IMG/VR virus record: IMGVR_UViG_2534681978_000021
Source of the DNA: a virus
Taxonomy: Duplodnaviria > Heunggongvirae > Uroviricota > Caudoviricetes
DNA length: 39,385 nt
Strand: one strand, 5' to 3'
Part shown: positions 2,569 to 27,392 of the stretch, in pieces
Layout of the letters: each line of letters begins with the position of its first letter
Position numbering within the stretch: the first letter of the stretch is position 1
Program-made: the position numbers and the translations under genes
Notes under the pieces: model-generated
Seen by the model: the letters and a program-made list of their open reading frames with translations, nothing else
What the model was told of the DNA's origin: nothing
The model's database searches: none

Positions 2569-4623
2569 TTACGCGTTATTCACTTCCACCACGATACTGT
2601 CAATCAGTACCGGGTAAGTCGCATTTTTAGTGATATCGGTCACGCGCAACTTGTCTGCCGTAAACGTGCCGACCGAAGACTGCGACAGCATGAATGGTGT
2701 CCCGTCCTTACCATCAATGACCGGCGTCACCTCAATACTGTTGTTACCGGCAAAACGGAAGCCCAGCGTATGCCATTCGTTATTAAATGCGCCGAATGAC
2801 CCCAACTTCGTGTTCTGCGCCGTGTTTCCTTTGTGATACATCACGTTAAGGTCTGTGGCATCGCTCTGTACGTAGAACGATGCCAGCAGGTTATGACCGG
2901 CATTTCCTTCCAGAGTAACCCCTTGCGGCAGGGCAGAAACCGGCCAGTACAGCGCCAGTGCGTACTGATTAGCCGTAAGCGCGCCATCGAGTTTAAAACG
3001 ACAACTGACAAGACCACCTTTACCCAGCAGGTCCGCACCATTACCAGCATCATGCTCAAGGTACCAGGGGGCTCTTCCTGTTTCCTTGGTCAGTTTCATT
3101 GCCTTACCCCCGCTGGCTCCGGCATCATCCACGATTTGAGCCTTGCCACCTCCGGCAGCCCAACCCTGTGGTGTCAACCGTCCTTCAGACTCAGATGCCC
3201 GGTAAGCAAATAGCGTACTCATCGTCGTGGTGTCTGCGGGTGGCGTGGACGGTTTTGATGGTGTATCAGGTGACGGCTTCTCATCCGGTGGTGTCACGGT
3301 CTGCCCGCGCATCAGTTCAGCCGTGCGCCCTGCATGGAGCATAATAGCTGAGGCCAGACGGTCTGAAATGACGCCCCTGCGTGCCCATGAGCTGAAATGG
3401 CTGTCACGCTGTGTCGAAACAAAACTGCCCTGGGTTCGGGATGCTGCACCGTAATACCCGACAGCCACAATATCCGGGTCTTCCGCCGGAGCATTCGTTG
3501 GCGTGCTCTGTCCATTCTCATCCGTCAGGAACGGTACAAAGAAAATTTTCTGTGCTTCCTTGCCTTTGTAGCCACCGTATACTGCCTCATATTTATCGGT
3601 GCCAGCGTTTTTCCAGTAATACGTGGTATCACCGCAAATCCACGGCACCGTGGTGGCATTTCCACTCACGCACTGCGCAGCAAGCGGAGCCAGGTCAGTT
3701 CTGAACTGCTGAACCATGGCCGTGAATAAACTATTATGCTGCTGGCTTCCTGAGGCAAGGTCTGCCTCTCCCTGCATCCAGACCACAGCCAGAAGTTTGT
3801 TTTTCGGGTTTTTCGCCAGCGCGACTTTGGTGCGGCTTACCAGGTCCTGATACAGAGGTTTACCGGCCCCCCAGCGTGAAGAATCAGCGGAAGCACCGCT
3901 GGCCTCACTGAATGAGCCGTCGGCTCCAGTGGTGAATGCTGACCCGCCACGACAACAGGGCACCAGAAGTATCCCGGCATTCTGTGGGATATAGGGAAGC
4001 AGTTTTTTGGCAATATGCAACCCCTGACCGACAGTCCCGTACTGGCCTTTTGCCAGATCAGCTTTCGGGTGGTTTATCCCGCTCATATCCTGAACATCAT
4101 GCAGGCAGTGGTCTGCCGGAATGATGTCGTTGTATGTACACGACGTACCGTTGGGCGTTACCGTACTGCGGCGTGCCAGTTGCTTAATGCGTGGGTCCGG
4201 GCGGTCAAACGAATCCGGTAACGGCAGCCCCTCGCCGTAGGCCATGCCATTTGACTGACCCGCGAGAATGACAACAAAGTAATATTCCGGCTCTGAACTG
4301 CTGCCATTCGTGCTACCGGAAGGCCCGGCGTTATCCGGTGCATTCCAGTCGGAGGGCGTGAGCGTTCCGGCCACGTCAGATGTGATTGGAATGATGCCAG
4401 TCACGCCTGAACTGGTGATTTCTGCACTGGGATTACCGGATACCGGCATTACCCATAATGGCTCTTTCGTGCTGAAGCGGATCACGCAGTCTGCGAAGGT
4501 GATCCCCCCTTTATTACCCGAAGGGCGGAAAGGGCTTTCAATAAATGCCACCGTGCCACCGGCAACCTTGACTGAAAACTCTCCGGGCATGGCGGAGAGC
4601 ATTTTCCACTTGGAGTCTGACAT
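2569..4623 (-). CDS. three-module SGNH/sialate-O-acetylesterase-family carbohydrate esterase (N-terminal ~110-aa domain, esterase core, Pro/Thr/Ser-rich linker, C-terminal ~230-aa domain)
   Basis: 684 aa; GQSNG motif at residues 122-126 and downstream WMQGEAD block typical of the SASA/SGNH esterase fold; PSPDTPSKPSTPPADTT linker. Confidence 0.7.
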   Translation of the reverse strand: MSDSKWKMLSAMPGEFSVKVAGGTVAFIESPFRPSGNKGGITFADCVIRFSTKEPLWVMPVSGNPSAEITSSGVTGIIPITSDVAGTLTPSDWNAPDNAGPSGSTNGSSSEPEYYFVVILAGQSNGMAYGEGLPLPDSFDRPDPRIKQLARRSTVTPNGTSCTYNDIIPADHCLHDVQDMSGINHPKADLAKGQYGTVGQGLHIAKKLLPYIPQNAGILLVPCCRGGSAFTTGADGSFSEASGASADSSRWGAGKPLYQDLVSRTKVALAKNPKNKLLAVVWMQGEADLASGSQQHNSLFTAMVQQFRTDLAPLAAQCVSGNATTVPWICGDTTYYWKNAGTDKYEAVYGGYKGKEAQKIFFVPFLTDENGQSTPTNAPAEDPDIVAVGYYGAASRTQGSFVSTQRDSHFSSWARRGVISDRLASAIMLHAGRTAELMRGQTVTPPDEKPSPDTPSKPSTPPADTTTMSTLFAYRASESEGRLTPQGWAAGGGKAQIVDDAGASGGKAMKLTKETGRAPWYLEHDAGNGADLLGKGGLVSCRFKLDGALTANQYALALYWPVSALPQGVTLEGNAGHNLLASFYVQSDATDLNVMYHKGNTAQNTKLGSFGAFNNEWHTLGFRFAGNNSIEVTPVIDGKDGTPFMLSQSSVGTFTADKLRVTDITKNATYPVLIDSIVVEVNNA

Positions 4624-24291: not shown

Positions 24292-25955
24292 TACCAGCCC
24301 CCCCGATCAAATTCATGATATGCCTCATCGTCATCACGATAACCGCCCTCCATTGCCCGCGACCGCTCCGGTAGCGCCTGACAGGCTGATTCATCCAGGA
24401 TGAAACCCTCCATGTATGACGCCCGGTTTGCCATACAGAGTGCCACGGCAAAATCACCATGGCGGCGGGCGTTCGCAGCCGTTGCGTTCTGGTCCTTCGT
24501 GCGCCCCTTGTCGATTTGCGGGATACCATTCACCACCTTCACATGGCGCAAATCATCAAGCGTGGTCTGATGGCGGGCGACGAGGATATTCTGATCTTCA
24601 AACTCGGCTTTCAGTTTTGGCATCCACTCGCCGTACCACTTCGGCGACAACATCACGCAGTCGATGATGTCCGGGCCAAAGGCCAGCAGTGCGGCCTCTG
24701 CCAGATAGCCGCCGTTACCGGTGGCGTCGAACGCCGCACCGACCAGCGCCGGAACGCGGGTCAGGATGTACATCATCACCTGTTCCTGCTGGGCATACGG
24801 CAGGTTGCGCAGCTCCACGCGAAACACCTCGCGCTTTGCCAGGAGTTCGGTGATTTCCAGCAGCACAAAGCAGGACAGGTCACCGGTGCGGGCAAAGTCT
24901 TCCCCGAAGCTGAAGCGGGAACGGGGATTTAATTTCTCTGTAAGCGGTTTTAAATGTTCTTCACACCAGGTTAAAACTTCCGATTCACGCAGCCATGCGG
25001 CACGGCTGATGAAGTCGTCCGGGGCTTCAAACGTCAGAATCGGGATGTCACGAATCATCGCCATTTCAATAAGCGCGTGAGGAATATAGGCACCGCCGGA
25101 TTTTTTCGGGATACAGCCGTATTCCTCGTCGGCATCCTCACGGGTCGGGGCGTTTTTGTAGAGATCATCACGCCATTTCTGCTCGCTTTCCGGTGACCAT
25201 TCCTGATCGGTGACGTAACAGATACGACGGTACAGCCCGTCCGCAATGGCATCATCCAGGGTTATGCGGTGGACGCTGTAATCCTTGCGCCCCTCGCGGG
25301 CTTCCTGAATGTACTGATTAAACAGATTATCGACGCCGTTATGCGTGGAAATAATGCGCACGCGTGCGCCCCACATGGTAAGCGCCATTGCCGCCTTGAG
25401 AAGCTCATCCAGTGACTCGTGGAACGCGGCTTCATCAATCACCACATCCCCCTGAAGACCGCGCAGGTTTGACGGACGGGAAGACAATGCCTGAATTTTG
25501 AATCCACTGTTCGGAAAGCGGATCATGTAGGTCAGAATTTCTTCTTTTTTATCCCGATCCCAGAATGTCTGCTCATACACATCAGCATCTGCCAGCTGGT
25601 TAAAGGCACGGGAGAACAGCGCGCAGGCAGAAATATATTCCAGCGCCATCTCCTGTTTTGACCCCACATAAAACACATTACGGCCACCACGACGCTTAGG
25701 CTTTGCGGCGGTAATGACGTTACGCCCGGCTTCCGCCCAGGTAAGCCCGGTGCGTCGGGATTTCTCCGCGATGCAGACCTGACTTTCATCTGCAAACCAG
25801 CGGGCCTGATAATCCAGAAACACCGGCATATCACCGGGCAAATCAAGGCTGTCCGGCACATCCACGCCCAGCAGGGCTTTTTCACCGGACAGATCAATTT
25901 TGCGGGGAGGTGTCATTTGTATCAGTGAAGGAGACTTTTCTTTGGCTTTGTTCAT
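24291..25955 (-). CDS. terminase large subunit
   Basis: 554 aa, position upstream of portal. Confidence 0.75.
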   Translation of the reverse strand: MNKAKEKSPSLIQMTPPRKIDLSGEKALLGVDVPDSLDLPGDMPVFLDYQARWFADESQVCIAEKSRRTGLTWAEAGRNVITAAKPKRRGGRNVFYVGSKQEMALEYISACALFSRAFNQLADADVYEQTFWDRDKKEEILTYMIRFPNSGFKIQALSSRPSNLRGLQGDVVIDEAAFHESLDELLKAAMALTMWGARVRIISTHNGVDNLFNQYIQEAREGRKDYSVHRITLDDAIADGLYRRICYVTDQEWSPESEQKWRDDLYKNAPTREDADEEYGCIPKKSGGAYIPHALIEMAMIRDIPILTFEAPDDFISRAAWLRESEVLTWCEEHLKPLTEKLNPRSRFSFGEDFARTGDLSCFVLLEITELLAKREVFRVELRNLPYAQQEQVMMYILTRVPALVGAAFDATGNGGYLAEAALLAFGPDIIDCVMLSPKWYGEWMPKLKAEFEDQNILVARHQTTLDDLRHVKVVNGIPQIDKGRTKDQNATAANARRHGDFAVALCMANRASYMEGFILDESACQALPERSRAMEGGYRDDDEAYHEFDRGGW

Positions 25956-26203
25956 CAGGCTTTACCTGTCAGAATGCTTTTGATTCGGAACTCAAGCTCT
26001 TCAGTCATCACGTCCACGCCACTCAACTCATCAGTGACAGCCCCTGCCAGCAGCGAATGCAGTTGTTCCAGGGATATTTCCCCGGCAATGCTGAGTTCAG
26101 TCAACTCACGACACGCTTTTATGGTTTCAGGAGGTAACTGTGTTGCAAGACTGAATGCCTTCTGATGAGCACTGCTCATCAGTGAGCGGTTATCTGTTAC
26201 CAC
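25955..26203 (-). CDS. small protein carrying a diverged copy of the small-terminase C-terminal tail
   Basis: 82 aa; C-terminus AVTDELSGVDVMTEELEFRIKSILTGKA parallels AVTDELRGVDGMSEQIEFRIRQMLLGKA of the upstream gene. Confidence 0.4.
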   Translation of the reverse strand: MVTDNRSLMSSAHQKAFSLATQLPPETIKACRELTELSIAGEISLEQLHSLLAGAVTDELSGVDVMTEELEFRIKSILTGKA

Positions 26204-26213
26204 GATTCACCTC

Positions 26214-26795
26214 CTACGCCTTACCAAGCAGCATCTGCCTGATACGGAATTCTATCTGCTCGCTCATGCCATCCACGCCGCGCAACTCGTCGGTGACGGC
26301 GTTCGCCATCTCTTCAGCAAATGCGGCCCGGATTTCTTTTTCACGCTTAATGCTGCGCTCGGCGGCACTTTCCGCACGCTGTGCCGACAGGAGGATGTCC
26401 TTAATAAGGCGCATATCCACATCGCTGTCGCTGTTCAGGGATTCGGTGGCGGCACGCAGACGGCGGTACATCAGGGCACGGGACATCTCCAGAATCAGTG
26501 CCGTGGTTTCACCGGTCGGCTTATCCCCCAGTTCGGCCATCATGGCTTTTGTCTGCTCGCGTAAATCACGCAGATTACGGGCAATCAGCTCATTACGGGA
26601 GGCTTCCCGGCTGATGGCCGCCGGTGAAAGCTGCTGCTCTTCCGGCAGGCCTGCCTCACGGATCAGACGGTTGATTTCCTCGCGGATCTGGACCTGCGTC
26701 AGGCGTTTTTCACGCAGCATTTCCAGCAGCGGCTTACGGATGCTGTCGGGGAGCAAATCCACCTTGCGTACACGGCCACGCGTCGGCTTATCCAT
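26214..26795 (-). CDS. terminase small subunit-like protein (Mu gp27 position)
   Basis: 193 aa, charged coiled-coil-like sequence upstream of large terminase. Confidence 0.55.
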   Translation of the reverse strand: MDKPTRGRVRKVDLLPDSIRKPLLEMLREKRLTQVQIREEINRLIREAGLPEEQQLSPAAISREASRNELIARNLRDLREQTKAMMAELGDKPTGETTALILEMSRALMYRRLRAATESLNSDSDVDMRLIKDILLSAQRAESAAERSIKREKEIRAAFAEEMANAVTDELRGVDGMSEQIEFRIRQMLLGKA

Positions 26796-26797
26796 CG

Positions 26798-27088
26798 TTA
26801 CCCCCTTGCGCGTGGTTTCTTCACACCCGGAACAGTGGCACGACCTTCCGCCACATCCTGACCCCGGCCGGTCAGTTCAGCGATGAAATAACCGTTAACA
26901 AGCGTGCGCTTACGCACCAGTCCCTGCTCAGCAAGCCAGGCAATGTGGGTGTGAACGGTGTCGCGGGACACGCGGTGGCCGTAATCATCCAGGCAGTCCT
27001 GAAGCACGGATTCGCCCAGTTCGCCGTTGTAATCCGCCAGCGACCGCAGAATGACAAGACGCTGATCTTCAGTAATGAAATCACTCAT
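26798..27088 (-). CDS. hypothetical protein (Mu gp26 position)
   Basis: 96 aa, synteny. Confidence 0.45.
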   Translation of the reverse strand: MSDFITEDQRLVILRSLADYNGELGESVLQDCLDDYGHRVSRDTVHTHIAWLAEQGLVRKRTLVNGYFIAELTGRGQDVAEGRATVPGVKKPRARG

Positions 27089-27392
27089 TGTGTTTTTTCC
27101 TTACAGCCTGCTCCAGCAGCAGTTCGTTCTGATGAGAGACGGATTTCAGGGTGGCGTTGGTGGCCTTTAGCTCACCGCGCAGGGTGGTGATTTCGATATT
27201 GAGTCTGTTCACCTCCTGCTGCGTGGGCAGGCCGGAAATCCGGCTCTCCACCCGCTCAACCCGATCGGAGAGTTTTTCAAAGGCCTCGCGGGGGACGAAG
27301 GTTTTGCGCATCAGCGCCATGAAGATCCCCCCGGCCGTGGCCGTTGCCGACAGGATCGGCACAACATAATCTTTAACGATGCTGACCCACAT
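27081..27392 (-). CDS. small membrane protein with coiled-coil C-terminus (Mu gp25 position; possible lysis accessory protein)
   Basis: N-terminal TM segment VVPILSATATAGGIFMALM, then heptad-like sequence. Confidence 0.5.
   Translation of the reverse strand: MWVSIVKDYVVPILSATATAGGIFMALMRKTFVPREAFEKLSDRVERVESRISGLPTQQEVNRLNIEITTLRGELKATNATLKSVSHQNELLLEQAVRKKHNE

Follow-up and report, generated by a model that had tools for sequence, protein, structure and literature searches.

What is a second copy of the small terminase's tail doing between the two terminase genes of a Mu-like prophage? The question is raised by the virus record IMGVR_UViG_2534681978_000021 (Caudoviricetes), a stretch of 39,385 nucleotides (nt) referred to here as the window. 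Between its gene for a gp27-type small terminase and that for the large terminase, TerL, lies an open reading frame (ORF) of 82 codons, ORF82, whose C-terminus resembles that of the protein encoded upstream. A sequence-only reading of this DNA had noted the resemblance and offered two explanations, a free-standing mimic that could modulate packaging or a recombination scar. The best-supported description of ORF82 is that of a fast-evolving, optional gene in a known accessory-gene slot. More specifically, with a probability that we put at roughly 0.6, it is an optional chimeric accessory gene, composed of a slot module and a recombined gp27 3' end and putatively coupled to TerL, whose copied tail is mostly a passenger. 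As such it is not evidence of a new mechanism but a clean case of gene chimerism at a phage mosaic joint.

A terminase tail on a small accessory gene

The C-terminal resemblance is well above chance. ORF82 residues 52-82 align with gp27 residues 163-193 without a gap, with 20 of 31 positions identical and 26 positive (BLASTP, E 1e-12), and a profile-profile comparison by hhalign joins residues 50-82 to 161-193 with a probability of 96.4% (E 1e-9). The diverged copy described in the sequence-only reading, both of whose quoted peptides are exact, is thereby borne out by formal alignment. The gp27 tail consensus AVTDELRG.DGMSE.LE.RI..LLGKA is present in the ORF82 C-terminus, and the gp27 tail on its own matches positions 51-82 of phrog_30922, the protein family of ORF82, at E 6e-8. 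The copied tail, T2, keeps 11 of the 14 positions that are invariant in gp27 as well as the terminal GKA; the three replaced are R172, G176 and S178. It is nonetheless an outlier, sharing at most 22/31 residues with any of 44 distinct gp27 tails (the best type, Sp18, reaches 22/31), while these 44 are much more alike among themselves. The two 93-nt tails of ORF82 and the resident gp27 are identical at 61 positions, and their synonymous sites are saturated (proportion of synonymous sites that differ, pS, 0.79). Because nucleotide identity is moderate and synonymous sites are saturated, the duplication is old, as had been supposed.

The likeness is confined to the tail. No signal was obtained by hhalign upstream of ORF82 residue 50, no counterpart of gp27 residues 1-160 was found in ORF82 by BLASTP or hhalign, and no Pfam family matches ORF82 at E <= 1, which places it outside PF11985, the family of gp27. 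Searches of defence-system, NCBIfam and Pfam libraries gave no ORF82 match at all.

The rest of ORF82 belongs to a different lineage, that of the genes occupying the slot between gp27 and TerL. A third arrangement of the slot, at locus L021, holds a 67-residue ORF67 (P0132) that has no terminase-like tail; its first ~34 codons are shared with ORF82 at high nucleotide identity, it matches phrog_30922 positions 2-55 (E 2.6e-14), and a 120-nt spacer separates it from a TerL whose N-terminus is different again. A 65-residue ORF65 occupies this slot in Mu-like prophages of Citrobacter braakii and in many of those of Salmonella enterica, with 15 of 43 positions identical to the ORF82 N-terminal module (E 2e-7); a scan of genome contigs with the gp27 alignment had given two loci, one of them that of Citrobacter braakii. 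The layout, in which the gene sits between gp27 and TerL with its ribosome-binding site on or beside the gp27 stop, recurs in the window and at L021, L025, L051 and L062-L065, and the slot gene's stop overlaps the TerL start (TGATG in ORF82, GTATGAG in ORF65), the exception being ORF67 with its spacer. The ratio of non-synonymous to synonymous differences per site (pN/pS) in the ORF65 family is 0.29 at pS 0.39, against 0.10 for gp27 and 0.08 for TerL at the same loci, and the family is under purifying selection.

A gp27-like tail is nevertheless peculiar to ORF82: a profile search returned 42 members of the slot family outside the ORF82 group, and none of the 42 carries one. The proposal that related phages be searched for an equivalent ORF was partly rewarded, with slot relatives in Salmonella, Citrobacter and E. 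coli that are tail-less and no equivalent in Mu, D108, SfMu, JBD25 or MuM16-1. An exhaustive hidden Markov model search of 1.84 billion representative proteins returned only the ORF82 family, ORF67 and, as spurious matches, two eukaryotic repeat proteins; among these representatives, no gp27 protein was found to have its tail preceded by an ORF82-like region. ORF82 thus presents itself as a slot-family module (residues 1 to ~55) fused to a gp27 tail (~52-82), with the join in a short A-x-A stretch common to both parents. Since its N-terminal two thirds belong to the slot family, it is not simply a gp27 leftover.

The slot holds several mosaic small genes. Another type, the 87-residue ORF87, was seen in Salmonella (L050 4090-4353; P0136, P0137, P0139); only its first nine residues (MQQKYDWYE) are common to ORF65, the two being unrelated beyond, and it ends in VGKTS with a stop that overlaps the TerL ATG. 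ORF65 itself (P0135) has a weak match (E 2.9e-5) to positions 917-974 of phrog_220, 'minor head protein and DNA pilot', which may be a lead to its function or a chance hit.

Probable exchange at a mosaic joint

ORF82 was found at 17 loci drawn from genomes, IMG/VR and metagenomes, and these loci agree in more than the presence of the gene. In all 17 the last 13 codons of gp27 encode the ending IEFRIRQMLLGKA, also seen at L021 and L031, and TerL begins with MNKAKEKSPSLIQMTPP, with minor variants; loci without any trace of the cassette have a gp27 ending in LESRIKGILLGKA and a TerL beginning with MNNAEELSPLLTNTVST. Three types of TerL N-terminus can be told apart, MNKAKEKSPSLIQMTPPRKIDLSG in ORF82-bearing prophages, MNNAEELSPLLTNTVSTRKIDLAG in the Sp18 type and MSKRTGEEKIKPDTGLIKLSPPRKIDLSG at L021 and L031. 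Thirteen codons at the end of gp27 and ~24 at the start of TerL therefore co-vary with the presence of the cassette. From gp27 codon 181 to about TerL codon 24, the ORF82-bearing and the cassette-free prophage types are ~75% identical, as against ~93% in the flanks, and across 5,426 complete E. coli genomes the identity classes split cleanly into one of at least 92% and one of 74-76%. This contrast between block and flanks is a probable signature of cassette exchange through recombination in the conserved flanks.

The cassette is optional. Among the 5,426 genomes, 230 carry this prophage region and 25 of these have ORF82, so that it is missing in ~89%. Where it is missing, as in Sakai Sp18 and in two Stx phages that carry a Mu-like phage insertion, the stop codon of gp27 and the start codon of TerL overlap directly; the junction GGTAAAGCCTGATGAA that joins gp27 to TerL in Sp18-type prophages without the ORF is found again behind ORF82. 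The terminase genes also adjoin, with no ORF between them, in Mu, Shewanella phage MuM16-1 and Pseudomonas phage JBD25, and the cassette is absent from these three, D108 and SfMu. At L031 (IMGVR_UViG_2654587996_000001, 4083-4120) it has been deleted. What is left of the slot gene there, its ribosome-binding site, ATG and four codons, gives a nine-codon leader, MATDWFSYE, that ends 4 nt past the TerL ATG; the feature retained would seem to be translation into the TerL start.

The tails themselves may carry a trace of exchange. T2 shares 71 of 93 nt with the Sp18 gp27 tail, compared with 61/93 for the resident tail 259 nt upstream. The first 18 codons of the Sp18 tail resemble the resident tail (47/54 nt, no amino-acid change), and its last 13 are nearer to the ORF82 tail (30/39 versus 26/39). 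Such a pattern is expected if the arrangements are related by crossover between directly repeated tails, an event that would delete or insert the cassette precisely. Some E. coli genomes hold up to four copies of this Mu-like prophage region, and co-resident copies are the substrate that the proposed recombination requires.

A plausible course of events can be assembled from these data. At this mosaic hot-spot, Mu-like prophages would have recombined, unequally or illegitimately, so that a slot gene was fused in frame to a gp27 3' end. In the late operon, translation of ORF82 would then start from a strong ribosome-binding site of its own, directly at the gp27 stop, and ribosomes ending at its TGA could restart at the overlapping TerL ATG, so that the stop/start coupling role held by gp27 in cassette-free prophages would have passed to ORF82. 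The copied tail would be mostly an inherited passenger, held in frame by the stop/start arrangement, with the resident gp27 tail remaining the strongly constrained copy. Of the two explanations first offered, the recombination scar is the one supported, in the form of a slot module fused to a gp27 3' end inside a mosaic block.

Several points weigh against this account. No closer donor of the tail turned up in the 5,426 E. coli genomes or among the 44 distinct gp27 tails, and for that reason the recombination event is reconstructed rather than observed. Its direction may have been either a gain of the tail in ORF82 or a loss in the ORF67 and ORF65 types. The putative coupling to TerL is read from the overlapping stop and start together with a weak TerL ribosome-binding site, and RNA structure in the vicinity of that start is unremarkable (z about 0). 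Finally, there may be some selection on the tail peptide, given a pN/pS of 0.4-0.5, below 1, and the survival of 11 of 14 invariant tail residues although synonymous divergence is saturated.

The first ~15-24 residues of TerL are hypervariable among otherwise close prophages (window 25884-25955; L018, L021, L031, L025, L047). At least five unrelated N-termini occur (MNKAKEKSP.., MNNAEELSP.., MSKRTGEEK.., MSDEQKRLV.. and MARKKEPTL..), each followed by a conserved motif, PPRKIDL, STRKIDL or EPRLIDL. Since they vary ahead of a conserved motif, the mosaic joint lies within the TerL coding sequence.

Constraint on the tail and a possible role in packaging

Among the ORF82-bearing loci, pN/pS is 0.02 for the whole gp27 gene, 0.02 for its resident tail and 0.06 for TerL; it is 0.50 for the whole of ORF82 and 0.39 for T2. 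The copied tail is under relaxed constraint, about 20 times weaker than that on the resident gp27 tail.

The most durable of the alternatives is that T2 docks on TerL, where it would compete with gp27 and so time or limit packaging, or tether the N-terminal module to the motor. In lambda and P22 the C-terminus of the small terminase binds the N-terminal part of the large subunit, and in P22 TerS residues 140-162 bind TerL residues 1-58 (PMC9611059); by this precedent the copied tail is a candidate TerL ligand. The 11 conserved residues fit such a role, as do the ratio of non-synonymous to synonymous substitution rates (dN/dS) of 0.31 between T2 and the Sp18 tail, the ten intact alleles and a ribosome-binding site strong enough to predict high expression. 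Structure prediction is also compatible with it. An AlphaFold2 model of ORF82 has four helices (predicted local distance difference test, pLDDT, 70), in which the tail accounts for the last part of helix 3, for a loop (ELSGVD) predicted with low confidence and for a short helix at the C-terminus; the modelled gp27 C-terminus has the same layout, at low confidence (pLDDT 55). The predicted helices span residues 45-60 and 68-79 in ORF82 and 128-171 and 179-189 in gp27, with a loop between each pair, so that T2 would keep a helix-loop-helix arrangement.

Against a decoy or adaptor stands the weak constraint on T2 (0.39 against 0.02), together with the replacement of the invariant R172, G176 and S178. 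Furthermore, sister slot genes do without any tail, the cassette is missing from most sister prophages and from the five phages named above, and there is a natural deletion of the ORF (L031), as well as in-frame tail deletions and frameshifted copies. Binding of the Mu gp27 tail to TerL would itself be an analogy; the lambda and P22 small terminases belong to families unrelated to Mu gp27, a sequence search gave no solved structure related to gp27, and its model is of low confidence. A fold search with ORF82 against the PDB returned nothing below E 1, the top matches being ribosomal helices. One gp27 tail pairs with two very different TerL N-termini in these prophages, and the variable first ~20 TerL residues are consequently not the specificity determinant of the gp27 tail. 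We regard a packaging role for T2 as unlikely and the copied tail as probably a tolerated passenger.

A less likely origin of the insert within gp27

A second alternative would derive the entire 259-nt insert, spacer and ORF82 alike, from the neighbouring gene: the 259 nt at the end of gp27 would have been copied in tandem long ago, and the 5' two thirds of the copy would have drifted and changed frame; the N-terminal module would then be overprinted gp27 sequence. The 163 nt upstream of T2 are indeed colinear with the 163 nt upstream of the gp27 tail, with a score that beats 98-99% of dinucleotide shuffles (it was reached by 4-12 of 500) and tops all, or all but one, of 28-41 other real gp27/TerL segments; the colinear short matches include CCTCCTG, AGCGTG, GA.C.CAGCATT and GCATT.GCT. 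The significance is marginal, however, several tests having been tried, and no protein-level signal exists upstream of ORF82 residue 50. ORF65 and ORF87 of Citrobacter and Salmonella are not similar to their own gp27, and T2 is nearer to another gp27 lineage than to its neighbour, as would be expected of exchange between phages more than of local duplication. Duplication in place is on this evidence rather unlikely. A protein-level derivation of the module from gp27 was also considered and rejected: hhalign detects none, and the resemblance seen by eye between 'REVFTRAALA' and 'REKEIRAAFA' is not significant.

ORF82 as a gene

The 17 loci carry ten distinct ORF82 alleles, all of them intact. 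The Shine-Dalgarno sequence GGAGGTGA, which extends from the last base of the gp27 stop codon to 3 nt before the ORF82 start, is kept in all ten, somewhat degraded in two; most alleles start with ATG, that of the window with GTG. With this signal, its intact alleles and its overlapping stop and start, ORF82 looks like a translated gene; E. coli genomes in RefSeq label it a hypothetical protein.

Its 5' part is variable in an unusual way. Codons 2-16 (26156-26200) exist as two very different allele types, MVTDNRSLMSSAHQKAF and MEKNIRALIIRARREAF (L010, L012, L013). The first 17 codons have a pS of 0.38, while the following 34 are nearly invariant (pS 0.024), five times below the flanking genes, a pattern that points to recombination within the small ORF or to a recent sweep of its middle part.

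The weakest alternative, that the peptide is functionless, that only translation across the slot (or nothing) matters and that the ORF is decaying, would be consistent with a pN/pS of about 1 in codons 18-51 (on very few changes), a neutrality site-count test that is borderline and falls short of significance (34 non-synonymous and 18 synonymous changes, p = 0.053), the in-frame tail deletions, frameshifts, truncations or fusions of database copies P0008-P0011, the nine-codon leader that replaces the ORF at L031 and the small size of the phrog_30922-type ORF82 family, which is confined to E. coli; it is made improbable by homologues of the N-terminal module in three genera at a pN/pS of 0.29, by start codons and ribosome-binding sites kept in ten intact alleles out of ten, and by the preservation of the frame in both N-terminal allele types, different though they are at most of codons 2-16.

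Other ways of reading the slot were examined and set aside. Expression as a gp27-ORF82 fusion by programmed frameshift or read-through was rejected: ORF82 is in the +1 frame, and an in-frame TGA stands two codons before its start, within GGAGGTGAAT. No Rfam element matches the slot at E <= 1, no promoter-like site was found on either strand in 25700-27000, and terminator-like matches there are at background level.

Layout of the locus

All genes here run on the minus strand, in Mu late-operon order (Table 1). The resident gp27 scores 116 bits against PF11985, whose cut-off is 28, and is 57% identical to Mu gp27/D, itself annotated as a terminase small subunit; part of the TerL gene shows 76.7% nucleotide identity to annotated large terminases of Pseudomonas Mu-like phages. 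Over 25900-26850 the window is identical to E. coli strain AST198, strain FORC_029 being likewise identical or nearly so, and the segment represents a Mu-like prophage of the Sp18 type, as known from O157:H7 Sakai.

Table 1. Genes, gene parts and signals around the terminase junction of the window.
Feature	Position	Strand	Basis
DUF2730 gene	27081-27392	minus	
gp26-like winged-helix gene	26798-27088	minus	NCBIfam VpaChn25_0724
gp27-type small terminase, 193 residues	26214-26795	minus	PF11985, E 3.1e-33, full length; phrog_426 'terminase small subunit', E 8.6e-55
Resident gp27 tail T1, codons 163-193, MANAVTDELRGVDGMSEQIEFRIRQMLLGKA	26217-26309	minus	aligned to the ORF82 tail
Shine-Dalgarno GGAGGTGA of ORF82	26207-26214	minus	read from the sequence
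ORF82, putative chimeric accessory gene, 82 residues, GTG start	25955-26203	minus	phrog_30922, E 7.6e-57, positions 1-82 of 82
ORF82 N-terminal module, codons 1-51	26051-26203	minus	common to the tail-less slot genes ORF67 and ORF65
Copied tail T2 of ORF82, codons 52-82, LAGAVTDELSGVDVMTEELEFRIKSILTGKA	25958-26050	minus	protein and profile alignment to the gp27 tail
TGATG, ORF82 stop overlapping the TerL start	25953-25957	minus	read from the sequence
Hypervariable N-terminal end of TerL, codons 1 to ~24; right-hand side of the mosaic block	25884-25955	minus	
Large terminase TerL, 554 residues	24291-25955	minus	phrog_2, E 5.5e-43

Two further observations concern this region. In P0013, a 291-residue protein from an E. 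coli-type Logan contig, the gp26-like protein (VpaChn25_0724) and gp27 are fused in frame through loss of the intervening stop codon. On the plus strand, antisense ORFs run across gp27 (26155-26886, 243 residues) and across ORF82 (25910-26165, 75 and 63 residues). In every one of the ten alleles, two antisense frames stay open across ORF82; these ORFs match no PHROG or other family, lack a promoter-like site and can most probably be put down to codon composition.

Relation to known systems

The likeness of ORF82 to gp27 as represented by PF11985 and phrog_426 consists in homologous last 31 residues placed directly upstream of, and overlapping, the TerL start; it differs in lacking residues 1-160, which by analogy would comprise the DNA-binding and oligomerisation parts. 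An end-to-end match exists in phrog_30922, which has no annotation and in which neither the chimeric make-up nor the tail-less relatives are recorded. What emerges is an unannotated family of small genes, defined at the junction of small and large terminase in enterobacterial Mu-like prophages, one member of which illustrates how new chimeric proteins can arise where two essential phage genes meet in a mosaic joint. In this case an accessory gene would have gained its neighbour's presumed partner-binding tail while apparently keeping the translational coupling of the downstream motor gene.

For a decoy, a functional analogy is offered by Ppi of Staphylococcus aureus pathogenicity islands (SaPI) and Rpp of phage-inducible chromosomal islands (PICI), satellite proteins that target the small terminase of the helper phage and interfere with subunit interactions. 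These small proteins are encoded by satellites and directed at the helper's small subunit, and neither is a copied terminase tail; PMC10884400 refers to such proteins in general terms. Should the tail bind TerL, ORF82 would be a simple natural probe of subunit recognition in Mu-type terminases, and should it act as a decoy or adaptor, it would represent a new way of regulating the terminase, born of exon-shuffling-like recombination inside a prophage.

The closest parallel in position comes from Pseudomonas Mu-like phages, in which the terS-terL junction is a documented slot for accessory genes (PMC10884400). In JBD26 it holds a defence/counter-defence pair, the defence gene tab and anti-Tab, a small gene of the late operon whose start lies where the small terminase gene ends (PMC10884400). 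Like ORF82, anti-Tab (gp30, with Tab as gp31) is small (83 residues) and optional, being absent from close relatives; it lies on the forward strand and is co-expressed with the late operon. The differences are equally plain: anti-Tab has no terminase-like tail, the PHROGs are 13614 and, for Tab, 14530 as against 30922, no BLASTP alignment of ORF82, ORF65, ORF67 or ORF87 with anti-Tab or Tab is better than E about 1, and no Tab-like partner on the opposite strand with its own promoter was found, ORF82 filling the 259-nt slot. ORF82 and its relatives are analogues of anti-Tab in position, and the N-terminal module would resemble, by position, the accessory and counter-defence genes of late operons.

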